IMG/VR virus record: IMGVR_UViG_3300044971_004534
From: a virus
DNA length: 64,000 bases
Direction: 5' to 3' (one strand)
Shown: positions 8,598 to 60,510 of the stretch, piece after piece
Position numbering within the stretch: the stretch's first letter is position 1
Layout of the letters: the number at the start of each line of letters is the position of its first letter
Notes under the pieces: model-generated
Databases searched by the model: none
Told to the model about the DNA's origin: nothing
Seen by the model: the letters and a program-made list of their open reading frames with translations, nothing else
Position numbers and translations under genes: made by a program

Positions 8598-10219
8598 ATT
8601 ATCCTATTGATGAAAGACCAATATATGGAGCTACTGCCATGTCCAGTAATAGGGTTTATCATGCTATTGCATCTTTAGATAAAAACGGATTTAATGTTGC
8701 TGGAAGAAAAAATAGCGATGCTTTTTATCAGGTTGGCAAAGGTGGATCTTTATCTGTATTGTTTTCTAATTACAAATCCGATTGCGGTATACACTATGTA
8801 AATTTTGAAGGAACAGTACCAATCTTTTTAGATCTACAGCGTCTTCATCATTCTTATAATGAAGTTACCAATTCTGACTTAGCTATCAATGGTATTGCAA
8901 CTAGCGTTAGTTACTTGATCTCTGGCAATTCTTATTGTTTAAGATATCCAAAAAGCTTTGGTAAAATATTATTTGAAAAAAATAATAATTATTTTTATAT
9001 TGACGAACTTTTAGAAAAAGATAATTATTACGAAATTATCATTCATCCAAGATCTGTCGCTAAATTTACATTTACAGTATCATTTCAAAATTTACCATTA
9101 GTATCTTTAAGATTTAATATATTTAAGCCGAAGCAGATAGATTCTGAAACATTAACATTAAAGCATTACTTAAATTTTTATAATTTTACATTAGAAAATG
9201 ATAAGTGGTTGTTGGATTCACCTTCAAAAATGGTGGTGACATTAAATGAAAAGAGTCAATACTCTTATTTTAAAACAAGTGGAGACAAAAATTGTTTTTA
9301 TATTAATGGATATAATTCTCCCATAGTGATTTTTGCTTATGATAAGCAGTATGTAATAGAAAATCAAAATAAAAAAGATAGTCCTTTTTATTTTGATTTC
9401 TATTCAGAGGGCATGTATAAAAAACCATATAATGATTTTGACAATGATATAAACACTGACAGATTAAATTTATTTTTTGTTTTTAAAAGTATGACAGATG
9501 CCTTTAGTCGTAGTTATGAAAATTTAGATATAGATCCATACATAGATTTAGATTTTGATAGAGCTGTAGCTTATGATCCAGATAATATGTATTATGCGTG
9601 TTCAAACAAGCGTTATGCTGGTAATAAAATTTATATAGGGAAAAAAAGTATATCTTATATTACTGGAATGTATGGCATGGTTGCTCCAGATTCTAAAAAA
9701 ATTACATTTGCTGATTCTGGTTCATATATTGTTTATGACTATTTTGAACACGTGTGTGGCAAAGTTATGAATGTAGAAGTTATTGATTATTCAACAAGAG
9801 TAATTACGTCTCAAGATGAAATATCTTCTATTGCTCTATCTAGTAAAGATTTTGTTTTTGTTGATCAAAAATCTAGTAATTTGTATTTGTCTTTAATAGG
9901 AGACATGTTTTCGAGTATAGATGAATTTGCAGCTTATGTAGTTTCTGGTGGTATTCCACCAGGGTTGCCACAGAGTGGCAATGTAACGATTAAGATTAAT
10001 ACTGCTTATTTTGAAGCAAATAAAAGCAGTTCTAGTCTTTTTGCTTATAACTATATGAAATATAAAACAGATTTATCAAATTTAAGTGATAATGATTTTT
10101 ATAATTATATGTATTCAGATATTGATATTTACATTAAAAAAATAGTATCTGTATTAAAGTCTTATAGAGTGTTTGAAGTTAATGTGGAATTCGAGAAAAC
10201 AAGTACTGCAAAAAGGTGA
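8594..10219 (+). CDS. 541-aa hypothetical protein (N/K/Y/F-rich)
   Basis: This is a long open frame with an ATGA overlap to the upstream gene and an AGGAA-like SD about 9 nt upstream. No family is recognised. Confidence 0.75.
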   Translation: MNYPIDERPIYGATAMSSNRVYHAIASLDKNGFNVAGRKNSDAFYQVGKGGSLSVLFSNYKSDCGIHYVNFEGTVPIFLDLQRLHHSYNEVTNSDLAINGIATSVSYLISGNSYCLRYPKSFGKILFEKNNNYFYIDELLEKDNYYEIIIHPRSVAKFTFTVSFQNLPLVSLRFNIFKPKQIDSETLTLKHYLNFYNFTLENDKWLLDSPSKMVVTLNEKSQYSYFKTSGDKNCFYINGYNSPIVIFAYDKQYVIENQNKKDSPFYFDFYSEGMYKKPYNDFDNDINTDRLNLFFVFKSMTDAFSRSYENLDIDPYIDLDFDRAVAYDPDNMYYACSNKRYAGNKIYIGKKSISYITGMYGMVAPDSKKITFADSGSYIVYDYFEHVCGKVMNVEVIDYSTRVITSQDEISSIALSSKDFVFVDQKSSNLYLSLIGDMFSSIDEFAAYVVSGGIPPGLPQSGNVTIKINTAYFEANKSSSSLFAYNYMKYKTDLSNLSDNDFYNYMYSDIDIYIKKIVSVLKSYRVFEVNVEFEKTSTAKR

Positions 10220-10227
10220 TTTTATAC

Positions 10228-11130
10228 ATGCATATATTGAACATATCAAAAAATTTTGACTATATTTACTTAGATGCAAAATCAAGTTCTGTAAATATAC
10301 ATGATATAAACAAACTTGTTGAGAACTCGTACATACAAAAAGTAGTTATAAAAAATTGGAACAAAAATTATATTGCCGCAAACTATAGAGCATTATATCA
10401 ATTAAAAAGTAATGCAACTTTGCAGTTCTCTATGATCAATGCATCTTCTGTTGATATCATGGCAATGCAGGCTTTTTTGGCACAAGAAGAAATTCCAAAA
10501 GAAGTGTCAGCATTTGACGTAAGCAGATCAATTTTTGTACCGCAGTGGATAAATAGAATAAATAACATTCTTGTGTGGGACCAAAATTTATTTTACAATA
10601 ACAGTTTTTCTTTTACGGTATCTAAGTACGTAAATCAGTATCCCTCAGCCGTCAAAAAAGTAGTAATATTCCCTAACAATTTATCATCTCTAGATCAAGC
10701 TAGTCTTTCGACTTTGATGAATATGAATGGCATGGAGCAAAGTTTCGTATCTTCTTATGCTGGTTCTGTTGTTTCAAAGTACGGTGTTGACACAATTTGG
10801 CCCATATCTGTTAGTTCTTACAGTGACATAGATAATTTGGCTGCTTCTTTACGAAGCTATCTTGATGCTTTTAACATATTAAGTGTAATGATCATTTTTA
10901 GCGATAATATTAACAAGTCAAGTCTTTCTCTTGAGGAATATTACAGTATATCTAATTTGGAGAATTACGTGAACGTATACCTGTATGGATTACCAGTTGA
11001 CAAGGCTGGCAAGGCTTCTAGAGATCTAGACAGGTTTAAATGGATATCTGATGTAAAATATAGTAATTATTTTAAATCGGGCGTTAACGTCTATAATAAA
11101 AATAATATTAATTTTATTTTGCTAAAATGA
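10228..11130 (+). CDS. About 300-aa hypothetical protein
   Basis: The track starts this ORF at GTG 10216 (GTGA overlap). ATG 10228 is preceded by AGGTGAT (10214-10220), a strong anti-SD complement at good spacing, so I prefer 10228. No family is recognised. Confidence 0.65.
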   Translation: MHILNISKNFDYIYLDAKSSSVNIHDINKLVENSYIQKVVIKNWNKNYIAANYRALYQLKSNATLQFSMINASSVDIMAMQAFLAQEEIPKEVSAFDVSRSIFVPQWINRINNILVWDQNLFYNNSFSFTVSKYVNQYPSAVKKVVIFPNNLSSLDQASLSTLMNMNGMEQSFVSSYAGSVVSKYGVDTIWPISVSSYSDIDNLAASLRSYLDAFNILSVMIIFSDNINKSSLSLEEYYSISNLENYVNVYLYGLPVDKAGKASRDLDRFKWISDVKYSNYFKSGVNVYNKNNINFILLK

Positions 11131-11137
11131 CAATACT

Positions 11138-14100
11138 ATGCCTATAAAAGGAATCTCTAAATATTCAGTTTCTTTACAATTTTCCGAAGTTGGTGGAGAT
11201 CCACGTCCAGGTTCAGTTGTTTCCTATATGGACGAGTCTGGTCACGAACATCATTTTGTTGTCACTTTTTATGCAGCGGGTATTAAGTCATTCGGCATAA
11301 AACCCATATCTGGAATTGGTAAAATAAATCCTGGAATATTGCCTGGTTCTTATCTGAGATCTTTAGATAAAAGTTTTTATATAAAAGTTGGCAATAATTC
11401 TGTTACGCTTTCAGATGGATCAAAAATACACCAACTTGCTGAGGTAACAGATGTCAGAGAATCTTTTATTTCAAATCGTCATAGTTTAATTATTGATGAC
11501 GCTAGAGGTATAAGGTGGAACCAGGCCTTTATGGATGGCTCAGACTTTGCCTACTCTGCATGTGATTTAAGTTTTTTGAGTGTGGTTTTTCCATATGAGA
11601 AAGAAGTAATCAGTGGGATATCTAATCATAGACCTAGTCCAGTAATTGCTTTAAGCAAGCAGTTTGGCATTATGCAAAGTAGCGATGTAAAACATTATAA
11701 AAATTATCCTGTATTATTTTTAGATAGAAACGCAAACGATTTTTATAAAGTTCAAGTTTCTGAATTTGTAAATCTTGGTGATTTTGCAGTCAATAATCTT
11801 TCTTACGCTGTAAAAGATGAATCATTTTTGCGTGAATTGCAAGATTATACTTTGTGTGTTTTTGCTAGCAATGACTATTTAAATAATAAAAATGTATTTG
11901 CAAGCTTTGCAGCTAATATTGGCGCTTTTAATTCTAAAGACGTAGTAAATGATTTACTTTCTTTAAATACTATATTATCTTGTGGTTTAGTAAGAGCCAA
12001 AACCTTAGCTAATGGAAGTGGTTATGAGTTTATAAAAAATGTAAATTCCATAGACAACACTATATCTAATGGATGTTTTGATGGAGACTATATAAATGAA
12101 TTTATTCCAACAGATGATTTGTCTTTATTGTTTTTAAAATACGACGGCAAATATTATTGTGTTGGAAACTTTACCTATGAAAACACTGAATACGTATCTG
12201 GTTGCAATATGATTAATGGCAGATATGTTTCAGAAGGTCGAAATTCATTTGGAGAATTCTCTAAATCACTCATTGACAGTGAAAATTATTGCTCAATCAA
12301 TAAAGTAAAAATGTTTTTTGACCAAAAGTTTTTTGATGTTGTAAATGCAATTGTTGCTCTTTATGGGGTAGAGCAATTTGTTCATGAGCCAATAGGTATT
12401 GTTAGCAAGACAATAGACGGCAATGACATCAATAGGGACTATCAGTCGTATGACCCTGTTGTATGCTTGCATAACTATATTGTTGGAGACACTGTGCCAT
12501 CTTACCTAGATGGAAAGTATAGGCTAAACGATCTGTGTGACAACTATGTTCCTGGAAGTGCATTTTTAGATCGTGACATTAGACCTTTAACAAAAAATAT
12601 CAACTCAAAAGGTTTAGCAGAAAAAAGTACTGGGGTAGCTTTTAGGCCTAGCTATGCATACAAGAAAAATCAAAATAAATCTTTTTCTATTGCTGTATCT
12701 GGTTTTTCTGATTTGCTAATACCTTTTAAAAATACAATTAAAGACATTTTAGTAGATTATAATTTTACTTCATTAGAATCTGTTGACTTGGGTCTTAAGA
12801 TTGTTGGGGATATTGAAAGTTCTCAAATTAAAAATTTATATATTTCTGGAGTTTCTTGCATAGAAGATAATAGCGTATTATCTGGTTCTGATGGCGTGCT
12901 TAAGTACATGAGAAAAGACGGCTCTGTCAGTAATGTTGTTCGCCATAATGATGCTTTGCTGTTATTAAGTTTATCTTTACAATTTTTATCTTTTTTAAAT
13001 AATAACAATTACTCAAAGAACATGTCCTCAAGGCCAAGTTTAGTATTTGAGTTTGGTAAAAGCGGTAGAAGTAAGGCTGTAAAGCTTGCGTTTGCTTTAT
13101 ATTGCAATAATAAAAATATATATCAACTCAATGAAAATGATAATATTTACTATGTCCATAGTCATGATAGGGATTTGGCAATTATTGAAATTAAAAGACT
13201 TATAAAAAGTTTAAGAAATTTTTATGGATCATTTTCCAATTCTGTTTATCAAGATCTTTTAAAGTTAATTAATTTTTATGATATGAAATATAAAAATTCA
13301 GCGATCTCTTCTATGAAAGATAAGATTGTAGATGCCGCTCATTTGCTTACAAAATTTGATTTTTACGTCAAGGGCCTTGGAGATCCTTTAGTAGATGTTT
13401 TTGGAATCTCTGAAAATTCAAGTGGTAAAGTGAATATTGAAAAAATATCTGGACTGTCATTAAACAACAAAGATCTTAAAAATTATATTCCATCTAATGT
13501 CAGTAAGCGCGTGTCAGGATATTCTGTTAGTAAATCTATGTCTCATGTTAGCATTTCTCCTATTTGGTCTGGTGCTGTGCTTTTTTCTGGCACTATAAGC
13601 AGCCCATATTCACCATCAGGTCAATATGCAGTTTATGATGATGTCAATAACGCTTTAGAGTCTATTATTTTAAGATGGATAAGCGGAATAGACTCTTTGA
13701 AAAATGAATGTGAAGGCTACATAATAGAATCAAAAGATGATGTTGGCATTGTTGATGAGAACGAAATAAGTGCACGTAATTTTATTTTAGTATCTTCCTT
13801 AAAAAACAAATCCGATGTATTGTTAAAAGACAATTTTAAAATAGGTATTTCTTATGCTTGCATCACTGATGTAGAATTCAGGGGTAAGAGTACGGTTCAT
13901 TTTAATAATGGTTATATTTTGCATAACAGAAGGATATTTAGCGCTATTGTTAAGCCTTCTATAGACGCTGGTGCTAGGGTAATTTTGCAAGAGCAAAACG
14001 TTGATCAATTAATTATAGATTATTTTTCTAACATTGATAGCGCTATTAATGGATCTGCAAGTAAAAAATCAGAAGATGCTTTATGTTTTTTTGAAAATGT

Positions 14101-14887
14101 ATATAATCCAGATTATGTTGAAAGAACTGCAATAACAGATATAGGCGGACAAGAAGTGGCTGTTTTTGAAGGAGTAAAGTTTAGCTTTTTTAGTCAAAAT
14201 GCTTTTGCAAATTATGATACTTACAAGGGAGAATATTATTTTGATTCTCGTATTGCTTACAAAGAATCTTACGCACCACAGGGTGCTGACATCGTAGATT
14301 TAAATGTTGACTTAGACAGGCTTAATGACAGAAAAAGATCTTTGTATGTTGCTCAAAATTTAATATCGGAACAAATATCTTCAGTTATAGATCAAATATC
14401 TTCTTATGAAATTACTCAAAACGTTAATAAAAGTTTACTTATATATGGATTAAGATCTTCAGCATTAAATGCGCCTAAAAGATTGACTGCAAATCTTTTT
14501 GGTCATAACTTTTTTAACTTTGTTATGGTTAAATTGGGTGAAGAAGTTCAAGACTCTTATTTTACTCACAATACTTTCCTGTCTCCATATGCTGGCCTTA
14601 AAGCAAATAGGATTCACGCGTTTACGACAGACGACAATTTTGTTATGAAAAAGATCTTTGATAGATCTTCAAGTGTCAAAGATTGTTACGTTGAAAGGTC
14701 TATTCTTGCTGATTGGGGTAAATTAAAGAACTTGTATCCAATTCCGCCCAATGAATATGCTACAGCTGATGGCATAAATATTAATAAGGGCGAAGGCTCT
14801 AATAATAATGATGACGATATAATATATAGATTTAAAATAAGTAATTTGCCTAATATAAAAAGTTACACAATTAATGGTATAATTTAA
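11138..14887 (+). CDS. 1249-aa hypothetical large structural-like protein
   Basis: This is an uninterrupted 1249-codon frame whose stop overlaps the next start (TAATG 14885-14889). I can name no motif. Confidence 0.85.
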   Translation: MPIKGISKYSVSLQFSEVGGDPRPGSVVSYMDESGHEHHFVVTFYAAGIKSFGIKPISGIGKINPGILPGSYLRSLDKSFYIKVGNNSVTLSDGSKIHQLAEVTDVRESFISNRHSLIIDDARGIRWNQAFMDGSDFAYSACDLSFLSVVFPYEKEVISGISNHRPSPVIALSKQFGIMQSSDVKHYKNYPVLFLDRNANDFYKVQVSEFVNLGDFAVNNLSYAVKDESFLRELQDYTLCVFASNDYLNNKNVFASFAANIGAFNSKDVVNDLLSLNTILSCGLVRAKTLANGSGYEFIKNVNSIDNTISNGCFDGDYINEFIPTDDLSLLFLKYDGKYYCVGNFTYENTEYVSGCNMINGRYVSEGRNSFGEFSKSLIDSENYCSINKVKMFFDQKFFDVVNAIVALYGVEQFVHEPIGIVSKTIDGNDINRDYQSYDPVVCLHNYIVGDTVPSYLDGKYRLNDLCDNYVPGSAFLDRDIRPLTKNINSKGLAEKSTGVAFRPSYAYKKNQNKSFSIAVSGFSDLLIPFKNTIKDILVDYNFTSLESVDLGLKIVGDIESSQIKNLYISGVSCIEDNSVLSGSDGVLKYMRKDGSVSNVVRHNDALLLLSLSLQFLSFLNNNNYSKNMSSRPSLVFEFGKSGRSKAVKLAFALYCNNKNIYQLNENDNIYYVHSHDRDLAIIEIKRLIKSLRNFYGSFSNSVYQDLLKLINFYDMKYKNSAISSMKDKIVDAAHLLTKFDFYVKGLGDPLVDVFGISENSSGKVNIEKISGLSLNNKDLKNYIPSNVSKRVSGYSVSKSMSHVSISPIWSGAVLFSGTISSPYSPSGQYAVYDDVNNALESIILRWISGIDSLKNECEGYIIESKDDVGIVDENEISARNFILVSSLKNKSDVLLKDNFKIGISYACITDVEFRGKSTVHFNNGYILHNRRIFSAIVKPSIDAGARVILQEQNVDQLIIDYFSNIDSAINGSASKKSEDALCFFENVYNPDYVERTAITDIGGQEVAVFEGVKFSFFSQNAFANYDTYKGEYYFDSRIAYKESYAPQGADIVDLNVDLDRLNDRKRSLYVAQNLISEQISSVIDQISSYEITQNVNKSLLIYGLRSSALNAPKRLTANLFGHNFFNFVMVKLGEEVQDSYFTHNTFLSPYAGLKANRIHAFTTDDNFVMKKIFDRSSSVKDCYVERSILADWGKLKNLYPIPPNEYATADGININKGEGSNNNDDDIIYRFKISNLPNIKSYTINGII

Positions 14888-17800
14888 TGGCACAATATAT
14901 TAATACATCACTTATTGCTGACAATGAATTTTGGGACGCATCTACTTGGAGAAGAATGTGTAGAGAGTTGGCTGGACTTCGTGGATTGGCTCCTGCTGTA
15001 CATTTTAGGAACACTGTTAACGACAGTGATTCTTCTCAAAACGTTGATGACGATAGAATTTTTCATACTCATACACACCAAAAAATTTACGTTTGGGGCG
15101 TTGAGATGTGTTCTGGAGGTTATGACACTTTAAAAATATACTGGAGAGCCCCCAGTAATCCGCCAGATGCTCAGTGGACTTTAGATAGTGGGTGGACTCT
15201 TATAAAGGGAGCTGGAGCTAAGACTAATGGAGGAAGCGGTACTGGTGCTGGTCAAACAAATCCGAACAATACCGCCAATATTCAGCCTGGGCCCAGCCCC
15301 TTTGGAAATATAGGAACTTCTGAAGCTACATTGGGTGGCACTGGTACTGGTTTACATTTCCCTCGCAGCAATCCGCTTCCTGACGGTTCTACTAATAACG
15401 TAGAATACTTTTATAATCAGTGGCTTTTAGAGATGAAACATAGTGGTGCGATTTATACTATGGCTGGTCCATCTCCAATCTATGATCAGGGTCAGGCTTA
15501 TACAACTCTTACTTCAAATTTTTTAAGAACTTTTTTACTAATGAAAGAAGGGTATTGGAAATTTGTATTAGATGAAACGGCGTCTCCTTGGTATAATCAA
15601 TCTTTAGGTTTGCCAACTACAAATTGGGATTCTGGATTAAAAACAGATTGGTTTAACTCAAAGGGTCGTTTATCTCCTGTTGATTATGCAACAAATCCTA
15701 CTCTTTATCAATCTTTGCCTGGTCATGTAGATGCTTCTAAAAATAGTCAAGTAGCTTCTACGGGAGTGAGATATAGGTCAAGGTTTACTAGATCTCTTAA
15801 TGTAAGAGCTTTTTTTCCTGAAAAAGATTTAGTTACTGGTTCTTTAATGACAAAAGTTTTTAAGACAATGACTCCTGGCGTAGCTACTAATGATTACCAG
15901 GTAGATGCTCCATATACAAAAGTTGTAGGTTACGGCGCTGAATGGGGTAGTTCTTTGCAGACTGCATCCAGTGCTCAATGGACAAAGTTTGTTAAAACAC
16001 GAAATTCTTCTGGGCAAGATGGAACTTCAGGATTCCCTCACACTACAGAAATTACATCAAATGAAAGATTTAGTAATGTAGAATGGAGGTATACTCCATT
16101 ATTTAAAAAGAGAGTTATTAATCGAAGACACTTGTTCATTGATGGAGTTACCATAAATGGTGGCGACAAGTTTGTAGACGGATATTACAGCGTTCAGGGG
16201 CTATGGGAGGAAGACCCAATTTACGTCAGGCCAGATGCGCCTGCAGCTCCTGGTACTTCTTTTCCATCTGGAGATGGGCAAGTCAAAGGATGGTTTGTTG
16301 ACTTTAGGGGTAGTGTATTTAGAAATTGCACTTTTAAAAATATTTTTATTGGCGGCAGGGACGAATCTTGTTGGTCTGGAGTATCTTTTGTAAACTGCAA
16401 ATTTATTAATTGTGCAGTAAATACAAATGGAGATTCTATTCTTTTTCATGAATGTTCTTTCATTGGTGGTTATAAAAATACCGCCATGTTTACGCCGACT
16501 ACATTTCATTCAAGTGCATTTATTAGTTGTCAGTTCTTAAATAATGATAGAGTGTTTATATTCTCTTCTGCCAAGGGGCCAGTTAGCGATAATCTTTGGT
16601 GGCGTAACATTTTTGATTATCAAGTTAATCAAAATGGTGGCGGCAGTGAAATATTTTGTACAGAATTTCCAAGCTTTATGAGATTCAGTGCTCAAACTTA
16701 TGCGTTTGATGCAACAGGTACTAGCATAACTTCCCATATAGTGCAGCAGCATGAATTCTCAAGAAATTTATTTATTAATAATCGTTTGCATAGTGGTCTT
16801 GGTGGTATAGTTTCATCATATGAGACTTTTAGTAGAGCTAATCTTTTCTATATGAATACCTTTAATGATACCATTAAGATATACGCGCATACTCCTGCTG
16901 GACTTAGCGAAGACAAGTGCCTGTATGAGTCTTGGGCGCATAACTTCATGCATAAGCTTTCTATTTCTCTAGATGGAAAAACTTATCATCATAGATTTAT
17001 ATGCAACGCTGTTTCTGAGCCTCAGTTTAGTAGTTTCAAGAGTATAGATAGTCACTATAGTCCCTATTCTCTTGGGACAGGAGTATGCGTCAATGCAGGT
17101 GGAGTTGAGGGCGACTCAAGCGCTCCATCTGGCCAATGGTATTGCGTTAATACAACTGCTATGGCTAATAAGGCTATAAGTAACGTCTTTTTAAACTGGG
17201 GCAATTACTTTATGGACAACCACTTGGGTCCATGTTCTATATTTAACGGATTTCATCATGTATATGATCCAAATTTTGATATTAATAAAAGTATAGATAA
17301 TTATTGGAGTCAAAATAATTTGTGGAAATACGTAAATGTTGCTCATAGAAATAAATTTAATTTGCCTTTTCCTGGTAAAAAATATGGTTGGCATGATGGT
17401 CTTATTGGTCGCTTAAATCCTGATGGAACCGAATGGTCTCCTCAGCATCACAACTCAAGTGGAGCAAGAAGTTTTTCTCCTTTGCCTTTAGAATGGAAGC
17501 TAGAGCATTACGACAATGGATGGAAAGTTTGGGATACATCTTACGGTGGACCTTCTGGTGGTTTTTATTGTTCACAAGATTCTTCTCATATTGCATCAAG
17601 AAATGAATGCCGTTCTATTTATGTTAAAAATTTAAGCAGTAATGTTTGGGAGAAGAAGAATAGCGGTGTTTTGTACAGTAATGAGGCTGTTTTGTCTTCT
17701 AGACAAGGTTGGGGTCAACAGATATTCAGAAATGATGTTATAACTGATGGTCTAATATTGGCTTTGAATGCGAGTGTCGTTAGCTCTTTCAACTATGGAA

Positions 17801-18543
17801 GTGGTAGCTCTTTTGATATAGGAAATAATACACAATGGAAAAATATGATGAGCAATGGATTCCATGGTTCTATTCAAAATTCTCCAAGATTTGCTGGTAC
17901 AACTTTGACTGCTCCTCCGGCAAATTGCACAAATACCAATAATGACGGCAGCGGAGGTTCTATTAGGTTTAATTGTACAGATACCGATGATTTTGTAAAC
18001 ATTTCTAATATCAATTCTTCTGGAGCTACAGTCTCAAATACTTTTAGTGCAAAAACTGATGGTTTTATCACTATTCAAACCTGGGTTCGTTTAAGAAGTG
18101 TTGCAAATCAAATGTTTTTTGGTAAAGGAACAAACAGTACTTCTGGCAATTGGGACGGCTATTCTGTAGGTACTGGTTCTTCTGGTGGGCTTTTGATAGT
18201 TACAAATGGTGCTTCAGTTTATAAAGAAAATAGTACTTCTGGATCTGGACTCATACTATCTGCAGATGTTTGGTATTTTATTACTGCTGTCATTAAGATT
18301 GGTGGCACAAGTGGAGACGTTAAGGGCTACGTTAATAATGTAAGATATATTAATGGTTCTCACGGCTCAGAAACATCCTATGATGACACTGTTAATCCGC
18401 TCGTGTTGGCTAAAGGCTTTAAAAATAGTACTTCTAATTTTCCATTTACTGGATGGATGGGAGAGTTTTATTTTTACAATCGTGAATTGACTGCTTCCGA
18501 GGTAGAAATAAATTATCAAGCTACTAGAGGAAGATTCTTATAA
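14887..18543 (+). CDS. Fibre/receptor-binding-like protein, paralogue 1 (1218 aa), with a C-terminal LamG-like domain
   Basis: It shares an N-terminal module (LAGLRGLAPAVHF...IYVWGVEMCSGGYDTLKIYW), the EGYWKFVLDET motif and the VDFRGSVFRNCTF beta-helix-like repeats with the next two ORFs. Confidence 0.9.
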   Translation: MAQYINTSLIADNEFWDASTWRRMCRELAGLRGLAPAVHFRNTVNDSDSSQNVDDDRIFHTHTHQKIYVWGVEMCSGGYDTLKIYWRAPSNPPDAQWTLDSGWTLIKGAGAKTNGGSGTGAGQTNPNNTANIQPGPSPFGNIGTSEATLGGTGTGLHFPRSNPLPDGSTNNVEYFYNQWLLEMKHSGAIYTMAGPSPIYDQGQAYTTLTSNFLRTFLLMKEGYWKFVLDETASPWYNQSLGLPTTNWDSGLKTDWFNSKGRLSPVDYATNPTLYQSLPGHVDASKNSQVASTGVRYRSRFTRSLNVRAFFPEKDLVTGSLMTKVFKTMTPGVATNDYQVDAPYTKVVGYGAEWGSSLQTASSAQWTKFVKTRNSSGQDGTSGFPHTTEITSNERFSNVEWRYTPLFKKRVINRRHLFIDGVTINGGDKFVDGYYSVQGLWEEDPIYVRPDAPAAPGTSFPSGDGQVKGWFVDFRGSVFRNCTFKNIFIGGRDESCWSGVSFVNCKFINCAVNTNGDSILFHECSFIGGYKNTAMFTPTTFHSSAFISCQFLNNDRVFIFSSAKGPVSDNLWWRNIFDYQVNQNGGGSEIFCTEFPSFMRFSAQTYAFDATGTSITSHIVQQHEFSRNLFINNRLHSGLGGIVSSYETFSRANLFYMNTFNDTIKIYAHTPAGLSEDKCLYESWAHNFMHKLSISLDGKTYHHRFICNAVSEPQFSSFKSIDSHYSPYSLGTGVCVNAGGVEGDSSAPSGQWYCVNTTAMANKAISNVFLNWGNYFMDNHLGPCSIFNGFHHVYDPNFDINKSIDNYWSQNNLWKYVNVAHRNKFNLPFPGKKYGWHDGLIGRLNPDGTEWSPQHHNSSGARSFSPLPLEWKLEHYDNGWKVWDTSYGGPSGGFYCSQDSSHIASRNECRSIYVKNLSSNVWEKKNSGVLYSNEAVLSSRQGWGQQIFRNDVITDGLILALNASVVSSFNYGSGSSFDIGNNTQWKNMMSNGFHGSIQNSPRFAGTTLTAPPANCTNTNNDGSGGSIRFNCTDTDDFVNISNINSSGATVSNTFSAKTDGFITIQTWVRLRSVANQMFFGKGTNSTSGNWDGYSVGTGSSGGLLIVTNGASVYKENSTSGSGLILSADVWYFITAVIKIGGTSGDVKGYVNNVRYINGSHGSETSYDDTVNPLVLAKGFKNSTSNFPFTGWMGEFYFYNRELTASEVEINYQATRGRFL
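17960..18540 (+). other. LamG / concanavalin-A-like lectin domain
   Basis: The matching segment is ...FITIQTWVRLRS...VWYFITAVIKIGG...GYVNNVRYINGSH...FTGWMGEFYFYNRELTASEVEINY. This has the typical Laminin_G_3 ending (hydrophobic-YNRaLsasEi). Confidence 0.7.
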
Positions 18544-18555
18544 AGAAGGTTTATT

Positions 18556-21138
18556 ATGTTTCAAGCTTATGATTCTCAATCTGCATTACGCGAAATGGTC
18601 GGCATAAGAGGCGCTGCACCTTCTATTCGTTTTAAAGAGTCTGTTCCTGGGCTCTCTGTTGAAAAAGAGGTCTTACATGTCCCAGCTAATGAGAGTGTTT
18701 ATGTTTGGGGAGTTGAGCTATTTAGTGGTGGTTTTGATTGTTTAAAAGTAACACATTATCCAGATGGGCAGCCGCCTGTGCTTATAAAAAATGGTGGCAA
18801 TGAAATATCTTTATTGAATAACAGGAAACAAATTAGTTACTTTTCAAACGGTGTAAAAATTGTTGAAACATTACCTTTTGATGATTTTTGGAACGAACCA
18901 TTTTTAGTTAATAAAAACGATGAAAAAATAGTAAAGAGTAATTTTTTTAGGTGTTTTATATTTGAGTCTGAGGGTTATTATAAATTTGAGATTGATGAGA
19001 CTTTTAATCCTAAATATTTAAGTCCTGATTTTTTACCTATCGATTATGCATCTGATCAGATCTATAGCTCTGGCAGTGGCAATAGGCAGGGAAACAGGGC
19101 TGCTACTTGGTCTGTCACAAAGTCAAAAAGCTCGACACCAGAAGATTACGCAAGATCTAACAGTTCATTAAAAAGAGAAATTTATTTAAGAGTTATATCT
19201 AGAGATAAAGACATAGTAAATGGCAGCACTATATCTAGAAATGTTTTCAATCTTTCTCCAGGTTTAGTGAAGTACGAAAATTTGCCTCCATGGACGGGTA
19301 CTAATCGTGATGCAAACGGAAATCCTCTCAGAGTTAATACGTTGGGTCCGTGGTATGTAGCTGGCAATAATGCTTACTACAATGTTGACGCCTATTATAA
19401 TAGCAACACTACCACTTCAGGTGCGCCTACTATAGACTTAAATCACGGCTGGCTGGGAAGGAACGCTGTATTTGCTCCGCAGTACACAATACAGGGCTTG
19501 ATGAATAATCTACTAGAAAATTCTTATAGACCATATTCAGACTATTTTAGGCAAGGCTGCCGGTATTACAATATGAGAAATGGTGTTATTGAAAACGTTA
19601 ATTTTTATGGGTCAGATTTTTCAGTAGTTCATCAATTTTTTATATTACCATATAGCTATTATAACGACTCTTTAAATGTTGCTTCTTCTGATGCAAATGT
19701 ATTTTTAAATACTACTAGATATTTACCATCAGGATCATCTCTGACTTCAGTTAGTATAGCTTCTGGCTCTCCTGCGATATTAACGTCAGCCAATCATGGC
19801 TTGACGGCTGGCACTCCCATTATGTTTAGTGGTGGCTCTTTGCCAGTTGGTATAAGTGCAAATACAATTTATTTTGTCACAAGTTCAAATTTAACGGCTA
19901 CTACTTTTACAATTAGTGCAACTTCTGGTGGTGCTCCAATAAATACTACTGGAGCTACGGCATCATCTTTTTATTACAGAGATTTTGTAAATATAGATTC
20001 AATTGATAATCTTGTAAGCTATTTAAACAATGGAGCAACTTTTCCAATATCGAGTCAAAACGCTTTGTCCACTCCTGATCAATATCAAAATAATGTTTTA
20101 GTAGATATGAGAGGTGCTGTTTTTAAGAATTGTACTTTTGATAAATATCAAATGAATTTAACACATAAATCTATGATGCTAGATGGTGCAGTATTTGAAA
20201 ATTGCACTTTTATTGGTTGTGGATCTGGCTATAACAATAGTGGTGGAATATTATACAAAAATTGTCATTTTGAAGAAATTAGTACGCAGGGTGATTTGAG
20301 TTTAACATGGGAGGCCGGTGGTTCTTGCTGCGTCATGGGATGTACTCAAAAATATACTGAAAGAGGCACTTTATTTTCTTTTCATAAAGGTGGCTTTAAT
20401 GATAGTATTTGGATAAGGCATTCATATCACGGCATAGACAGGTTTCAGATAGCAAATGAGCATTGGGTAATGGAATCTTGTTGTTGTGGAGATTGTGCTA
20501 CTTCAAATCGTTTTGACAATAATATGTTTATAATGAACAGAGGCTCTAAGGGGCCTTGCAGTATAGGTCTCTATAGAGCAAATTGTAAACTAAATTTAAT
20601 CGCATTTAATTCTTTTGAAGTTTATTCTGGAGGATCTAATTACTTTTTAGTCAATGATCCGGGTCGAGTTTTTGACTTAGAATGCAATGTTTTTCTGTAT
20701 AATGATTCAGTTGGGTGCGGTATTAGTATGCAATATTGGTCCCATAATAATAGGTTTATTAATTGTACATTTAGAAAAATTCAAAATTTTGCCAACCCAT
20801 GGGGTGGATATAATTGGGTAAGTCAGGATGAAGTGGATGGAAGAAATTTTTACACTTCTTATGGTTTTCTCAATTTACTTGGTACAGGTTCAGATGCTCC
20901 AACCAGTAATCTTATAATCAATTGTTCAATGATCGACTATCAAGATGATACCTATACTTGGGGCGCAGGTTATAGTTCAGATAATCTTTTTAGAATTAGT
21001 AATATTAATCCAGCCGTAAATGATTCTGAAATACTGTCAGGTAAAAATATTATTTATAATTTAAGAAGAATAATAGAAAACAGTGCAGATAGGACTCATC
21101 CTATAAGCAGTAGTAATCCTAATATAAGTAATTTGTAA
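18556..21138 (+). CDS. Fibre/receptor-binding-like protein, paralogue 2 (860 aa)
   Basis: The N-terminus MVGIRGAAPSIRF...VYVWGVELFSGGFDCLKVTH, plus EGYYKFEIDET and VDMRGAVFKNCTF...AVFENCTFIGC, are homologous to ORFs 14887 and 21140. An AAGG SD-like element lies 5-6 nt upstream. Confidence 0.9.
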   Translation: MFQAYDSQSALREMVGIRGAAPSIRFKESVPGLSVEKEVLHVPANESVYVWGVELFSGGFDCLKVTHYPDGQPPVLIKNGGNEISLLNNRKQISYFSNGVKIVETLPFDDFWNEPFLVNKNDEKIVKSNFFRCFIFESEGYYKFEIDETFNPKYLSPDFLPIDYASDQIYSSGSGNRQGNRAATWSVTKSKSSTPEDYARSNSSLKREIYLRVISRDKDIVNGSTISRNVFNLSPGLVKYENLPPWTGTNRDANGNPLRVNTLGPWYVAGNNAYYNVDAYYNSNTTTSGAPTIDLNHGWLGRNAVFAPQYTIQGLMNNLLENSYRPYSDYFRQGCRYYNMRNGVIENVNFYGSDFSVVHQFFILPYSYYNDSLNVASSDANVFLNTTRYLPSGSSLTSVSIASGSPAILTSANHGLTAGTPIMFSGGSLPVGISANTIYFVTSSNLTATTFTISATSGGAPINTTGATASSFYYRDFVNIDSIDNLVSYLNNGATFPISSQNALSTPDQYQNNVLVDMRGAVFKNCTFDKYQMNLTHKSMMLDGAVFENCTFIGCGSGYNNSGGILYKNCHFEEISTQGDLSLTWEAGGSCCVMGCTQKYTERGTLFSFHKGGFNDSIWIRHSYHGIDRFQIANEHWVMESCCCGDCATSNRFDNNMFIMNRGSKGPCSIGLYRANCKLNLIAFNSFEVYSGGSNYFLVNDPGRVFDLECNVFLYNDSVGCGISMQYWSHNNRFINCTFRKIQNFANPWGGYNWVSQDEVDGRNFYTSYGFLNLLGTGSDAPTSNLIINCSMIDYQDDTYTWGAGYSSDNLFRISNINPAVNDSEILSGKNIIYNLRRIIENSADRTHPISSSNPNISNL

Positions 21139-21139
21139 T

Positions 21140-22837
21140 ATGGGATACACAGATCTTAGTTTTTATCTTGGCTTACGTAGATTGGCTGGTATTAGATCAG
21201 CTGCTCCTGCGGTAATTGTTATTGATCAAAATTTAGGACAAGAAGTTTATGTGGTAAGGAAGAATGAAATTATCACATTATGGGGTTGTGAAATGATGCC
21301 TCTGCAATCAGATTGCATTCGTATAAGTTACAAATCCACTGCATCTTCTTCTTGGACTGTTTTAAAAGACTATTTAGCTCAGACATCATTGGGAATATTT
21401 GGAAGTAATGTTTCAACAGATCCTAATTTATTTTTATCTGGTTCTCCATCTCTGGCGGATAATTATGAGTTGAATGATCCTGTCTATAAGGACGGTTTTA
21501 AAATTAGTGGAGTGACTTATTGTAGAGAACATGATAGTCCTTTTAAAACAGTTGGGTATTCTGGATCATGGATATATAGGCAAGAACAGCAGATTCATGC
21601 CAAAGTTTCATACAACAATTTTGGACGAGGTTTTAGATTTTTTCAAGACGGATATTATAAGTTTGATTATGATGAATCAAAATCAGCATTGTACAAAAAA
21701 ACAACAGGTTCAGCTAATCCAGTAGATCCTGATGCTGCTGATTATAATACATTCAAATACAATGGTTCTGTGCCGTGGACCCCAGTAGATAGAAGCCTGT
21801 ATGAGCATGGCGATGTTTTATTAAGATCCATTATAATTAGATGTGCAACTAATTTTGATGCAGTTGCAAATGCAAGTTATAGCGATAGCGACTTGTCTTC
21901 TTTAAATCCAACAGTAAGTTCTTTGCCTATCAACACTAGTCAAAACATATGCAGAAAAATAGGGTTGCAAGTAAAGTCAAAATCTTATGATGTTTCTGGA
22001 GGTTCAAAGCCAACGTGTTCTGCTAATGGTTTTTTGATAGACATTTCATCTGCTGGAGTTGCATCGACTACTATTAATCAATTTGATACAAATATTTCGT
22101 TTACTAGTGGTACTATAGTTAAAAATATTAGAAATAGGACTTTTGACACTGTCAATTTTGTGGGTCCTGGCGATTTTGTTCAGCATATATCTCCAATTCC
22201 TGGTTCAGACTATTGTGCTCAGCCAGTTGATATGCGTAATTCTAGATTTTATAATTGCACATTTAAAAATGTTATTTTTGGATCTCCTGGAAAATCTCAA
22301 TTGATATTAGATGGTTCGATATTTTTTCAATGTAACTTTGAAAGTTGTAAGCTTTATTTAAATCCTAAAAACATATTATTTAAGAACTGTACTGTTAATA
22401 ATAGTTCAGTGTCTGAAGGATTTTTAATTATGAATGGATCTTTTGGTAATATGTTTACAGATCTTATTGTAAAAGACACTAACAGGCCATTTGTTTTTGT
22501 TAATAATGAAAATAGCAATAATAGTAATTTTATTATAATGAGTAATTTTAGTCAAGGTGGAGATGTGGAGCTAGGTAGCTGTCCATTTGTAAATGTAGTT
22601 CCTGGTTCTAATTCTGCTCATTCTTCTTCATTTTCTGGCAATATTATTATGCGTAATTATATTGATGATGGATCTGGAGATCCTGTCAGAATAGAAAAAA
22701 CTTCAGCTCATGGTAATTTTTTTGGTGGAAATTACATGATTTCCCATGGAAATCTATCTTTAGCAGAAGACTTGAAACAGAAGCAAAAAAATAAGGATTT
22801 TATTAGATATCCCAGTATTAAGCCCTATACTTCGTAA
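21140..22837 (+). CDS. Fibre/receptor-binding-like protein, paralogue 3 (565 aa)
   Basis: The N-terminus LAGIRSAAPAVIV...ITLWGCEMMPLQSDCIRISY, plus DGYYKFDYDES and VDMRNSRFYNCTFKNVIFG...FFQCNFESC, mark the same family as the two preceding ORFs. Confidence 0.85.
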   Translation: MGYTDLSFYLGLRRLAGIRSAAPAVIVIDQNLGQEVYVVRKNEIITLWGCEMMPLQSDCIRISYKSTASSSWTVLKDYLAQTSLGIFGSNVSTDPNLFLSGSPSLADNYELNDPVYKDGFKISGVTYCREHDSPFKTVGYSGSWIYRQEQQIHAKVSYNNFGRGFRFFQDGYYKFDYDESKSALYKKTTGSANPVDPDAADYNTFKYNGSVPWTPVDRSLYEHGDVLLRSIIIRCATNFDAVANASYSDSDLSSLNPTVSSLPINTSQNICRKIGLQVKSKSYDVSGGSKPTCSANGFLIDISSAGVASTTINQFDTNISFTSGTIVKNIRNRTFDTVNFVGPGDFVQHISPIPGSDYCAQPVDMRNSRFYNCTFKNVIFGSPGKSQLILDGSIFFQCNFESCKLYLNPKNILFKNCTVNNSSVSEGFLIMNGSFGNMFTDLIVKDTNRPFVFVNNENSNNSNFIIMSNFSQGGDVELGSCPFVNVVPGSNSAHSSSFSGNIIMRNYIDDGSGDPVRIEKTSAHGNFFGGNYMISHGNLSLAEDLKQKQKNKDFIRYPSIKPYTS

Positions 22838-22894
22838 AATATAATTTTTATTTATACGAAATAATAAGTATAGTCAATATTATTGGTAATTTAA
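22838..22894 (+). promoter_or_regulatory. Largest intergenic gap; candidate internal promoter region
   Basis: This is the longest intergenic gap in the window (57 nt). It is extremely AT-rich and has a TATAAT hexamer at 22840-22845. There is no convincing -35 element, no SD before ATG 22895 and no exact T4-type TATAAATA. Confidence 0.2.
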
Positions 22895-46291: not shown

Positions 46292-47781
46292 TGGCTTACA
46301 TGGCAGCTTTGTCAAATGAATATGAACTTGAATGTTCTGGATTTTCTGGATCTGGAGGAGACAAGTCTTTCATATATAGAGAAAATGTTTATTTTTTGGG
46401 CAAGATACAAGCTTCAAACGTTTCTGCAGGCTATCTGGGCTTCCCGGGTTATTTTAAGATTGATGAAGCTCCATTTGCGATTGTATCTCAATTTGATGCA
46501 AGTACAAATTCTTTAAAATTAGTATGCAATGGTTACAGTTCTCCAGTTTTTAGAAATAGAGGCATTTGCAGGGATGACATTGTTGTTGGGGCCAAAAGCG
46601 GTGCAGTTAGATATGCTGGAAGAAATTTCAAAGTGTACACTGCAGACGGGGCTTCAATAGAAAAAACGGGCATTAAAGAAATTGGCTATAATCCTTTGCA
46701 CCACGATTTATTTGATTTTTCTTCTGATCCAGAAGTCATGTCTTTTGACAGATCTTTTCCTTTAAATAGAAATTTTTATAAAAACACTGTTTTTAATAAT
46801 TTAGATCAAAAGTTTGCTTGCATCGCCTTATTTGATAGAATTCCGCTACCTGTGCCATATACGGCAAATAAACATGGGTTTAGGCAGGCAGTAGCAGTTA
46901 CTCCTAGACATGTTTGTTTTTCAGATCACGTTTGGCCTTATATGGGTCACGACATTTCTTTTTACGATGTGGTACAAAAAACTATAGTTAATAGGACAAT
47001 AGTTAAAAAATTTAATTTTAATCTTCCAAATTATATATTAAAAAATGAAGATAACAATAATCTATCTTTTGGTCAAAGCGATCAAGGTATAGGCATATTA
47101 AACGAACCTTTGCCTCCAGGGGTTCCACTTGCGTATGTACCAGACGTAGCTTATAAGTCATATCCAGAAGCTACAAGAGTTAGAAAGATGCCAGCACTCG
47201 CTATTGATCTTTCAGCAAGAGGTTTATGCTGTAACGCTATAGTGGGTTTTTTAGGTAATGAAAATATTACTTCTAATATCACTATTATTAAAGCTGATCA
47301 ATTTACTGATGCTCTTGCATATCAAAACGCATGCTTAGATCACTGTAATGTTGGAGATTCTAGCACTATGTTTTTTACCTGTATTGATAACAGGTTAATT
47401 TACATGGGGTCTTTGGCTTCTGTTTCAAACAGTGTACATGGATTGTCTGGAACATTTTTGAACCAAGAATATGGATATGGAAAAATAGACTTGTCTTTCT
47501 TTCATTATCCTAATAGATCTGGAGTTATATCTTCTGAGGTAAAGGATAGATATTTACAAAATCAAAGCTATGGTACATCATTGAATTTTTGGTCTCGTGT
47601 TGGAAACAGGGCTTTAAGCTATATTTTTACTGATTTTGATGTATGGGAAACGAGCATAGACCCCTCTCATGTTCCATCAAGGATAAAAATAACTAATGAT
47701 ATAAATATTACAGAGTCTAATTCATATTTTGATTTGTCTAACGATAACTTATTAGACAGAAAAATAAAATTTATATCATGA
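46291..47781 (+). CDS. 496-aa hypothetical protein with possible chymotrypsin-fold (S1-like) His/Asp/Ser motifs
   Basis: A strong SD (AGGAG, 46280-46284) lies 6 nt before the ATG, and the ATGA overlap joins it to the next gene. The motifs are AVTPRHVCF (H207), SDQGIGILNEPL (D264) and NVGDSSTMFF (S357). Their order and spacing are 57 and 93 residues. Confidence 0.8.
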   Translation: MAYMAALSNEYELECSGFSGSGGDKSFIYRENVYFLGKIQASNVSAGYLGFPGYFKIDEAPFAIVSQFDASTNSLKLVCNGYSSPVFRNRGICRDDIVVGAKSGAVRYAGRNFKVYTADGASIEKTGIKEIGYNPLHHDLFDFSSDPEVMSFDRSFPLNRNFYKNTVFNNLDQKFACIALFDRIPLPVPYTANKHGFRQAVAVTPRHVCFSDHVWPYMGHDISFYDVVQKTIVNRTIVKKFNFNLPNYILKNEDNNNLSFGQSDQGIGILNEPLPPGVPLAYVPDVAYKSYPEATRVRKMPALAIDLSARGLCCNAIVGFLGNENITSNITIIKADQFTDALAYQNACLDHCNVGDSSTMFFTCIDNRLIYMGSLASVSNSVHGLSGTFLNQEYGYGKIDLSFFHYPNRSGVISSEVKDRYLQNQSYGTSLNFWSRVGNRALSYIFTDFDVWETSIDPSHVPSRIKITNDINITESNSYFDLSNDNLLDRKIKFIS

Positions 47782-59700: not shown

Positions 59701-59762
59701 ACGGAACATCAGTAAAAAGCGAAATAGCCGAGTGGAGAAGGCCAACAGGTCCGCCGCTATAA
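47778..59762 (+). CDS. 3994-aa mosaic structural/adhesin-like protein (vWA-like, LamG, FN3-like, Kelch, PPC, discoidin-like)
   Basis: This is an uninterrupted 3994-codon frame, and embedded alternative ORFs are all under 90 codons. Domain motifs are listed as sub-features. Confidence 0.9.
   Translation: [3994 protein letters not shown]
49050..49215 (+). other. vWA-like N-terminal half with a MIDAS DxSxS motif
   Basis: [47 protein letters not shown] matches beta1 (DxSxS), alpha1 and beta2 of vWA domains. The match then breaks off into an FN3-like segment ([21 protein letters not shown]). Confidence 0.5.
49740..50235 (+). other. LamG / concanavalin-A-like domain
   Basis: The matching segment is [15 protein letters not shown]...LSLWIYLF...[26 protein letters not shown]...[22 protein letters not shown]. 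Confidence 0.7.
54130..55390 (+). other. Kelch-repeat propeller (about 6 blades)
   Basis: The blade cores are [55 protein letters not shown] and [11 protein letters not shown]. Intervening W residues (RWTTA, TWLSL, SWSVS) are present. Confidence 0.75.
56095..56450 (+). other. PPC (bacterial pre-peptidase C-terminal)-like domain
   Basis: The matching segment is [27 protein letters not shown]...[10 protein letters not shown]...[10 protein letters not shown]. This has the typical D.D.y.F....G.y.i.v ... G.Y.l pattern. Confidence 0.6.
56466..56583 (+). repeat. Poly-Ser linker (two Ser runs split by NQGGNG)
   Basis: These are in-frame AGC/TCT/AGT tandem-like repeats (AGCTCTAGTAGC units) translating as [39 protein letters not shown]. 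Confidence 0.95.
56928..56975 (+). repeat. Poly-Ser linker (16 Ser) from a 12-nt tandem repeat
   Basis: AGTTCTAGCTCA occurs 3 times, followed by AGTTCTAGCAGT, all in frame. Confidence 0.95.
57290..57640 (+). other. vWA-like C-terminal half
   Basis: The segment is [20 protein letters not shown]...[15 protein letters not shown]...VKVNSFNIS...[14 protein letters not shown]. It resembles the alpha3 to beta6 part of vWA domains (..T.l..al..A, iiLlTDG..n, v.v..igig, la..tGG.y). Confidence 0.4.
57690..57910 (+). other. Discoidin/F5-8 type C-like (galactose-binding-like) segment
   Basis: [18 protein letters not shown]...[12 protein letters not shown] resembles the v.yS.DG..W......aRYvRi ending of discoidin domains. 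Confidence 0.4.
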
Positions 59763-59784: not shown

Positions 59785-60510
59785 ATGAATTTGTTAATTG
59801 GCATATTGCAATATAATAAATATAATGTTACGTTAAAATGTATAGAGTCTATAGAAGCTTTTACGGGCTCTGTAGACTATACAATTTATTTATTAGATAA
59901 TAATTCCTATGACGGAAGTTTTGATCACATCAAAAATACATGCTCGTCTAAAAACAATATTGTTTTAGAAAAAAGCGAAACCAATAAGGGTGTTATAGGT
60001 GGCAGAAACGCTATATTTGAATATTTTAATCTTCATCAAAATTATACTCATTTGTTATTTATTGATAACGATCAATTTGTAAAAGACAAATGGATTGATG
60101 GATACATTGAAATATTTAAGAAATCACCTAATGCTATATGTGGTATAGAAGCATGGATACTGTCTAGCAACTTTACTCCATTGAGAAAATGTTCAGAAAA
60201 AGATTTTGGTTTTTCTTATGTTGGTTGCGGTGGCATGATGGTGTCTAGAGAAGCTTTTAACTCTATAGGTAAATTTGACGATGATTTTAATCCGGCTTAC
60301 TTTGAAGATCCAGATTATTGCTTAAGAGCTTTCTTTGAAAAAATTCCTGTTATATGGAATAGGGTTTCAAGAATTGATCATCTTCCTCATCAAACGCTTG
60401 GTCAAAGATCATTAAAAGCTGGTTTATCTTTTAGAAAATCCTTAAATGCGTTCAGGCAAAAATGGAAAGGCAAGTTTGGTGGTGGTATTATTTTTAGAGA
60501 TAATTTATGA
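59785..60510 (+). CDS. Family 2 glycosyltransferase (GT-A fold)
   Basis: The motifs are IYLLDNNSYDGS, the DxD-like LFIDNDQF, and GCGGMMVSREAFNSIGKFDDDFNPAYFEDPDYCLRA. The last is typical of GT2 (gg..l.rr..f..iGgfDe.f...yEDvDlclR). Confidence 0.85.
   Translation: MNLLIGILQYNKYNVTLKCIESIEAFTGSVDYTIYLLDNNSYDGSFDHIKNTCSSKNNIVLEKSETNKGVIGGRNAIFEYFNLHQNYTHLLFIDNDQFVKDKWIDGYIEIFKKSPNAICGIEAWILSSNFTPLRKCSEKDFGFSYVGCGGMMVSREAFNSIGKFDDDFNPAYFEDPDYCLRAFFEKIPVIWNRVSRIDHLPHQTLGQRSLKAGLSFRKSLNAFRQKWKGKFGGGIIFRDNL

Follow-up and report, generated by a model that had tools for sequence, protein, structure and literature searches.

Three paralogous genes with a predicted beta-helix core form a fixed set beside a giant open reading frame in a huge phage and its relatives

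The stretch of DNA analysed here, referred to as the window, comprises 64,000 nucleotides (nt) of the IMG/VR virus record IMGVR_UViG_3300044971_004534 and consists of a one-strand, densely packed run of very large open reading frames (ORFs). Among these lie three adjacent genes, P1 (paralogue a, 14887-18543, + strand, 1218 amino acids (aa)), P2 (paralogue b, 18556-21138, +, 860 aa) and P3 (paralogue c, 21140-22837, +, 565 aa), and behind them a giant ORF of 7798 aa (22895-46291, +). An earlier reading of the bare letters, here called the original prediction, had described the three ORFs at these coordinates as paralogous fibre-like genes with a shared N-terminal module (N-module) and diverging C-termini, possibly a set of receptor-binding proteins attached to the same site and expanding the host range, or a branched fibre. 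The ORFs themselves were found as described.

The paralogy was confirmed by pairwise BLASTP with composition-based statistics, in which each pair matched as two collinear blocks, with expect values (E) of 2e-19 (aa 26-344 versus 12-247) and 1e-8 (start of the beta-helix, see below) for P1-P2, 2e-10 and 3e-9 for P1-P3, and 3e-9 and 2e-7 for P2-P3. A hidden Markov model (HMM) of the N-terminal 120 aa, run against all six frames of the window, recovered exactly P1, P2 and P3 at about 1e-36 each, the next best match being 0.85. From these two results, the relationship of ORFs 14887, 18556 and 21140 is real and not compositional, and similarity by composition only, which had been considered, does not explain BLASTP values of 2e-19 to 3e-9 that lie far beyond chance. 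The N-module itself is present in all three proteins (LAGLRGLAPAV...YVWGVEM...DTLKI in P1, with counterparts in P2 and P3). Neither a fourth paralogue nor the N-module on another protein was found when the window ORFs were searched with the family profile and the N-module HMM. Two further shared motifs had been located to within one base: the central motif, EGYWKFVLDET at nt 15547 in P1, EGYYKFEIDET at 18970 in P2 and DGYYKFDYDES at 21647 in P3 (predicted at 15546, 18970 and 21648), and the motif that opens the helix, VDFRGSVFRNCTF at 16297 in P1, VDMRGAVFKNCTF at 20101 in P2 and VDMRNSRFYNCTF at 22226 in P3 (predicted at 16297, 20101 and 22227).

The similarity extends beyond these motifs over a core of about 550 aa, and the family profile (positions 1-631) aligns end to end with P1 5-704, P2 5-704 and the whole of P3, which is essentially a bare core. 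A shared N-terminal module with divergent distal parts had thus been recognised correctly, whereas its limitation to 70-80 aa plus isolated motifs did not hold. A single-chain AlphaFold2 (AF2) model of P3, built on 22 family sequences (predicted local distance difference test (pLDDT) 73.9, predicted template modelling score 0.83), shows an all-beta N-terminal half and, judged by DSSP and pLDDT, a beta-helix in the C-terminal half. On the DNA, the N-terminal all-beta domain (aa 12-245) corresponds to 21173-21874 (+) and the right-handed beta-helix (aa ~340-540) to 22157-22759 (+). Confident strands in the N-terminal half comprise the N-module (residues 12-80) and the EGYYKF motif (160-180), and the stretches between them are of low confidence; from the model we infer that these are the core strands of a single beta-sandwich domain, whose length differences, including a Gly-rich insert in P1, would be loops. 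The corresponding region of P1, putatively one domain, runs by alignment from RELAGLRGLAPAV...YVWGVEM...DTLKI to EGYWKFVLDET (15547-15579) and covers 14962-15579 (+). The Gly-rich insertion (aa 108-160, 15208-15366, +) lies inside it and is specific to P1 in the multiple alignment, as had been predicted.

The second half of the core is formed by F-x-N-C-x-F coils, which are predicted to wind into a right-handed beta-helix with an irregular ~19-26 residues per coil (AF2 strand spacing) and a pLDDT mostly between 80 and 95, and which keep invariant Cys, Phe and Asn positions in the alignments across the family. By alignment, BLASTP and profile, the shared helix occupies 16297-16998 (+) in P1 and 20101-20670 (+) in P2, beginning in each at the motif given above. 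In the PDB, Foldseek returned weak matches of the P3 model to pentapeptide-repeat proteins (EfsQnr, AlbG, MfpA) and to the Dettilon, HK620 and Sf6 tailspikes, and in BFVD weak matches to tail-spike and beta-helix proteins. The Det7 tailspike was likewise among the weak matches of these searches. The N-terminal domain modelled alone (AF2, pLDDT 63.6) gave only antibody- or Ig-like noise (E >= 0.12).

Comparative analysis was possible for 12 loci with enough sequence, namely the window and L006, L008, L010, L013, L014, L015, L018, L019, L020, L022 and L026. Exactly three family genes, in the order a-b-c and with 1:1:1 orthology, were present in 12/12. In the bit-score matrix, P1 reached 942, 818 and 360 against the a-slot proteins of three relatives and only 62-129 against any b or c. 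Per-slot orthology and constant order in all 12 loci imply that the triplication is old and that the copy number is invariant, which contradicts the expectation that copy number would vary among related genomes. Conservation along the alignments of orthologues peaks in the N-terminal ~100 aa and at the start of the helix. Between the window clade and a distant clade, the trio is the sole part of the neighbourhood that BLAST detects (28-38% identity). As a pattern of conservation, this is the opposite of fast-evolving receptor-binding cassettes. It had also been expected that the C-termini vary while the N-module is conserved; add-on domains do vary and the N-terminus is conserved, but so is the beta-helix, and the idea that the helix is the swapped distal domain failed, as the strongest conservation is seen in the N-terminus and the helix together. 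Within the N-module, 12 columns are conserved (>= 80%) in all three groups, eight of them with an identical residue throughout, and a further 16 (a), 11 (b) and 9 (c) columns are conserved in one group alone. These paralogue-specific columns point to specialised, non-interchangeable roles and argue against the proposed attachment of all three proteins to the same site.

What varies between lineages is attached to this core. Paralogue a of the window (14887-18543, +) has, by BLASTP, profile and conservation profile, a core of ~700 aa, an a-specific conserved extension to about aa 950 and a lineage-specific C-terminus. The latter holds a LamG / concanavalin A-like lectin domain (aa 1045-1206, 18019-18504, +; PF13385, Laminin_G_3, E 9.4e-12, 45.8 bits versus a Pfam cut-off of 27.6; phrog_4390), which, as had been claimed, is found in P1 alone of the three. 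It became visible only when the C-terminal 278 aa were scanned separately, and full-length hmmscan (E <= 0.01) missed the Pfam family. Full-length scans of such large, compositionally odd proteins can thus overlook real domains. A LamG C-terminus on a is restricted to the window and its nearest relatives (P0001, P0002, P0004 and L013), the P0004 orthologue scoring 48 bits. Paralogue b, delimited at 18556-21138 (+) by BLASTP and profile, carries the predicted extra insert, which the multiple alignment places at aa ~345-505 (19588-20070, +), between the N-terminal half and the beta-helix. It includes a small domain like a Rhizobium phage 'putative tail protein' (48% identity over 76 aa, E 2e-7, tblastn). 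Orthologue conservation across the insert is 0-13%, and its core was found only in the window and in P0034, an 81%-identical protein. Taken together, the LamG domain, the annotated phage-tail-protein domain and the giant partner described next look, from their sequences, like binding domains.

Paralogue c (21140-22837, +; BLASTP, profile and AF2 model) is separated from the giant 7798-aa ORF by an AT-rich spacer of 57 nt (22838-22894, +). Both ORFs are in the same frame; read-through or recoding was considered and rejected, as the spacer contains several stop codons, and P3 and the giant ORF are therefore separate genes in the window. Elsewhere they are continuous. In L010 the ORF in the c slot matches P3 residues 5-560 and runs without interruption into a segment 38% identical to giant residues 3-662 and, further along, into a counterpart of giant residues 2549-3400. 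The c core of L014, L020 and L022 continues in frame into a homologue of giant residues ~2467-2972. In L026, c (10001-18592) has ~900 aa inserted between the N-terminal domain and the helix and then at least 1380 aa past the helix, an extension that was not compared with the giant ORF. The L026 insertion lies at the same junction as the ~150-aa insert of P2, a place where domains appear to be inserted preferentially. The lengths of c range accordingly from a bare core of 533-569 aa up to 1079, 1090, 1668, at least 2589 and at least 2864 aa, and the search of representative proteins added long c-type proteins of 1134-3146 aa, including P0025, P0030, P0031 and P0032. That the longer a and b proteins are collinear with c followed by the N-terminus of the giant protein was also considered and rejected, as nothing in the C-termini of a and b resembles the giant ORF.

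RCC1 repeats, a dockerin domain and a pectate-lyase-like domain were recognised in the second half of the giant ORF; no Pfam domain was found in its first 4,000 aa, and a self-BLAST at 1e-10 revealed no strong internal repeats. Orthologues in relatives measure 5,607 and 7,788 aa. As far as can be read from the domains, this make-up fits an extracellular adhesin. By the logic of Rosetta-stone fusions, P3 is probably the proximal stem of the giant protein, the two associating end to end, and the giant ORF may then be viewed as the distal payload of c.

Upstream of the trio lies a 1249-aa ORF (11138-14887, +), whose stop codon overlaps the P1 start by one base (TAATG). P1 and P2 are separated by 12 nt with an AGAAGG Shine-Dalgarno-like site, and P3 starts one base after the P2 stop. 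Judged by these junctions, the trio genes and the 1249-aa ORF are tightly coupled; promoter-like and terminator-like sites occur at background level. The synteny of the 1249-aa ORF is kept in L006, L008, L010, L013, L026 and L027. Conservation in the distant clade is confined to the ~120 aa at its C-terminus (aa 1113-1237, nt 14474-14848), which hhalign matched to the same C-terminal position of a 1267-aa protein upstream of the trio in L015, L022 and L019 (probability 95%, E 2.5e-8). From synteny and hhalign, the conserved C-terminal domain of the ~1250-aa protein is a candidate docking partner of the trio. The body of the L015 1267-aa protein consists of Ig-like repeats that match 'major tail protein' PHROGs.

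The functional context of the trio can be read in L015, a 118-kb IMG/VR contig. Here a gp15-like sheath stabilizer (phrog_227, 1e-69) is followed by the 1267-aa ORF, a, b and c, and then by packaging and tail genes, namely TerS, TerL, sheath, tube, portal and prohead protease, an arrangement that matches the gene order of T4. The L015 portal shares 49% identity with its counterpart in the cyanophage Synechococcus phage S-CAM9, in which gp15 is directly followed by gp16. The L015 gene order and the comparison with S-CAM9 indicate that the trio belongs to the late structural operon of a contractile-tailed phage.

The phage of the window is a huge phage with contigs of up to 401 kb, the largest being JGI 3300036398 Ga0334988_0000001. 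No connection was established between this lineage and the 'moraphages' described among aquatic jumbo phages (PMC12619734). Hallmark capsid, portal and sheath genes were not reached on walking out of the window in both directions. Within the window only giant ORFs of no assigned function flank the trio, and further such ORFs follow upstream of it. What is listed at 137-2410 (+, 757 aa) forms only the C-terminal portion of a longer ORF (2,807 aa, L023 1578-10001) extending beyond the window start; no PHROG match was found for it or for the upstream 356-aa and 1,708-aa ORFs. Profile searches of PDB sequences returned nothing for the 1249-aa ORF and only an fn3 domain for a 1848-aa ORF. Downstream, a second giant ORF (47778-59762, +, 3,994 aa) has Kelch/beta-propeller repeats and a weak VWA match; the 496-aa ORF just before it is without a family. 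Directly behind these structural-looking giants lie three glycosyltransferase genes (GT2, GT1 and GT2; 59785-62352, +), whose products may add sugars to virion proteins or alter the surface of the host. They are followed by an SbcD/Mre11-like nuclease (62336-63556, +; phrog_284, 1e-44) and then, beyond the window (L031 11221-21221), by replication genes, the downstream order being glycosyltransferases, SbcD-like nuclease, DEAD-box helicase, a protein with an IF3 N-terminal domain, DnaB, DnaG zinc ribbon and a split PolIII alpha. In L006 (3915-5209), two extra small ORFs (216 and 215 aa) without a counterpart in the window lie between the 524-aa and 295-aa genes.

The family is small. Word-indexed searches of 5.8 billion proteins yielded 15 matches with the family alignment and six with P3, and an exhaustive HMMER search of 1.84 billion representatives gave 117 matches below 1e-3 and just 42 below 1e-10. 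Ten weaker HMMER matches were sampled, of which two were pentapeptide-repeat proteins, two were sub-threshold Beta_helix matches and the rest were without a Pfam match. P3 found no match by tblastn in 50,697 GenBank phage records, and no relative was detected in GTDB with one genome for each of 185,579 prokaryotic species; a prophage or cellular origin was rejected on this result. The family loci, ten in IMG/VR and two in JGI metagenomes, lie exclusively on viral and metagenomic contigs, and the carrier phages are uncultured, low in GC (30-38% G+C) and known from metagenomes alone. Scans of the trio and its neighbours against Pfam, PHROGs and NCBIfam identified no family apart from sub-threshold Pentapeptide_4, phrog_4390 and LamG, and the family profile matched only MfpA (E 0.027) among PDB sequences. 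By these searches, a, b and c constitute a previously unannotated protein family.

The explanation that we favour, with modest confidence, is that P1-P3 are an old, fixed set of three tailspike-like structural proteins that serve as three non-interchangeable spike stems of a tail adhesion apparatus. The N-terminal beta-sandwich domain would probably dock each protein on the virion, with the conserved C-terminal domain of the ~1250-aa upstream protein as a possible docking site, and the right-handed beta-helix would probably act as a rigid stem. Host-facing function would then reside in the lineage-specific add-ons hung on this core: a would present the C-terminal LamG lectin domain, b the small phage-tail decoration domain inserted before the helix, and c the giant multi-domain adhesin-like protein, which is a separate 7,798-aa polypeptide in the window lineage and fused elsewhere, so that the association of P3 with the giant protein may be non-covalent in the window lineage. 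Orthologues and conserved residues specific to each slot suggest three distinct positions in one apparatus, occupied either by three kinds of spike or by one hetero-oligomer.

Several points weigh against this explanation. The placement of a, b and c on the virion is a prediction from their genes, and the docking role of the N-terminal domain, which has no recognisable relative, is argued from conservation and analogy. The fold matches are weak (PDB E >= 1.6e-3 and template modelling (TM) score <= 0.42; BFVD E >= 3e-4). The T4-like context is known from the distant clade only and not from the window's own genome, whose replication module is non-T4 (DnaB, DnaG and PolIII alpha split in two ORFs). 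Most of the c-giant fusions are each known from one contig that occurred in one or two samples. Finally, hhalign detected no similarity of the trio to the T4 proteins gp6-gp12 and wac.

A different explanation, which stays close to the original prediction and is unlikely in our estimate, takes P1-P3 as independent homotrimeric receptor-binding proteins or depolymerases that attach through the N-module to sites of the same kind and provide multivalent binding or an expanded host range by distal swapping. In its favour are the shared N-terminal domain with diverging distal parts, the predicted beta-helix fold as in tailspikes and the C-terminal add-ons that differ by lineage. However, copy number and order are constant in 12 loci with orthologues for each slot, the beta-helix is among the most conserved parts and lacks a pectate-lyase or glycosidase signature, the trio outlasts its neighbours in sequence conservation, and each paralogue has its own conserved N-module residues. 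No glycosidase or lyase family was matched in the trio proteins in the family library scans, and the conservation of the helix across distant phages appears unlike that of host-specific depolymerases. Virion adhesion proteins with conserved proximal and varying distal parts are retained in part from the original prediction, and a copy-number-variable host-range cassette at one site is not. The branched fibre, the other of its two proposals, comes closer to the evidence, as c is continuous with pieces of the giant ORF in L010, L014, L020 and L022.

It is also conceivable, although we consider it quite unlikely, that a, b and c co-assemble 1:1:1 into a pseudo-threefold heterotrimeric spike, with N-terminal domains and helices side by side and one distal arm each. 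In favour of such an assembly are the strict 1:1:1 gene set in fixed order with translationally coupled genes, the similar length of the cores, the conserved positions specific to each paralogue and the very asymmetric payloads, one of which, with thousands of residues, a homotrimer could hardly accommodate in three copies. Yet this arrangement is read from the genes, single-chain insertions between the N-terminal domain and the helix (~150 aa in P2 and ~900 aa in L026 c) would disturb a tight trimer register, and a and b have ~250-400 aa of conserved sequence past the end of c. A more far-reaching version, which is similarly doubtful, would derive a hetero-oligomeric, pseudo-threefold stem with one copy each of a, b and c from a homotrimeric tailspike by triplication, every chain thus being free to bear its own arm, and regard it as a symmetry-breaking mount for a single-copy giant adhesin, used in T4-ordered as well as ~400-kb phages.

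That the three are non-virion, intracellular or secreted pentapeptide-repeat-like proteins of a late operon (DNA mimics like Qnr and MfpA, or surface-modifying factors) is highly improbable: EfsQnr, AlbG and MfpA are among the top PDB fold matches and there are weak sub-threshold Pentapeptide and HalA profile matches, but these matches are weak (17.6 bits versus 38; TM <= 0.42), the proteins measure 565-1218 aa with a large extra N-terminal domain, their genes lie between tail and packaging genes (L015), LamG and phage-tail domains are carried, and c is continuous with proteins of several thousand residues that in part share homology with the RCC1/dockerin giant ORF of the window. No homologue proved to be a cytoplasmic enzyme.

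For the proposed three spike stems, the nearest known parallel is the branched complex formed by the tailspikes TSP1-4 (ORF210-213) in the Ackermannviridae phage CBA120 (PMC8825819, PMC7506556, PMC11414711). The trio resembles this complex in its tandem tailspike-like genes, predicted beta-helix bodies and putative N-terminal assembly domains; in CBA120, one protein anchors the others to give a multi-armed adhesion organ on a myovirus baseplate. In contrast to CBA120, the helix of the trio lies in the conserved core, the set is a fixed 1:1:1 set of three, and variation lies in the add-ons before and after the helix. The beta-helix of the CBA120 spikes is the variable, enzymatic, host-specific part, and their N-terminal assembly domains are described as gp10-like. 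No gp10-like assembly domain was recognised in the trio, the comparison of the family profile with T4 gp10 by hhalign giving 0.2% probability.

A second parallel is provided by gp10, gp11 and gp12 of T4, adjacent genes for proteins of the baseplate periphery, for which a common ancestral fold was reportedly proposed by Leiman et al. in 2006 (J Mol Biol). Like these, the trio consists of three neighbouring, anciently related genes for what may be distinct, non-interchangeable peripheral tail parts. Unlike the T4 genes, which precede wac and gp13, the trio follows gp15 in L015, and its predicted fold is a beta-sandwich plus a single-chain beta-helix. Homology was not detected by hhalign, neither between the trio and gp9, gp10, gp11, gp12 and wac (all <= 0.2%), nor between the trio or the 1249-aa family and gp6-gp12 and wac (all < 6%), nor between the 213-, 541- and 304-aa neighbour families and gp53, gp5, gp6-gp15 and wac (all < 6%).

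With the tailspikes of P22, Sf6, HK620, Det7 and Dettilon (gp208), the trio shares the layout of an N-terminal particle-binding part, putative in the trio, followed by a right-handed beta-helix, the latter at the level of prediction (P3 aa ~340-540), and in L015 also the location in a structural module. It differs from classical tailspikes in that no Pfam Beta_helix or Pectate_lyase match was obtained, the TM is <= 0.29, the helix has conserved Cys, Phe and Asn, and binding domains as well as payloads lie beyond the helix. The F-x-N-C-x-F periodicity resembles positions i-2 (Cys) and i (Phe) of pentapeptide-repeat proteins (PF00805/PF13599; MfpA, Qnr, AlbG), whereas the coils of the trio are irregular, with ~19-26 residues versus 20, and the helix forms part of large multi-domain proteins of a structural operon. 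The Pentapeptide_4 score of P3 (17.6 bits, E 0.004) lies below the cut-off of 38, P1 and P2 have no such match, and the comparison with the quadrilateral helices of EfsQnr, AlbG and MfpA gave Foldseek E values of 1.6e-3 to 1e-2 with a weak TM (target) of 0.25-0.42.

The genomes of huge phages and of aquatic T4-like phages are rich in giant ORFs without an assigned role, and we know of no account of how giant proteins are mounted on phage particles. The small a/b/c family may represent the constant part of such a mount, with a lectin, decoration domains and a 7,798-residue adhesin-like protein as exchangeable parts. In practical terms, the family profile allows annotators to label about 40 otherwise nameless proteins. 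The trio, with its fixed membership and conserved beta-helix, further illustrates that a tandem array of spike paralogues is not necessarily a host-range cassette in flux. Should the hetero-oligomer reading prove true, phage adhesion organs would possess a new means of breaking trimer symmetry. The interest of the locus lies mainly in the fixed trio and in its link to one of the largest ORFs of the window.

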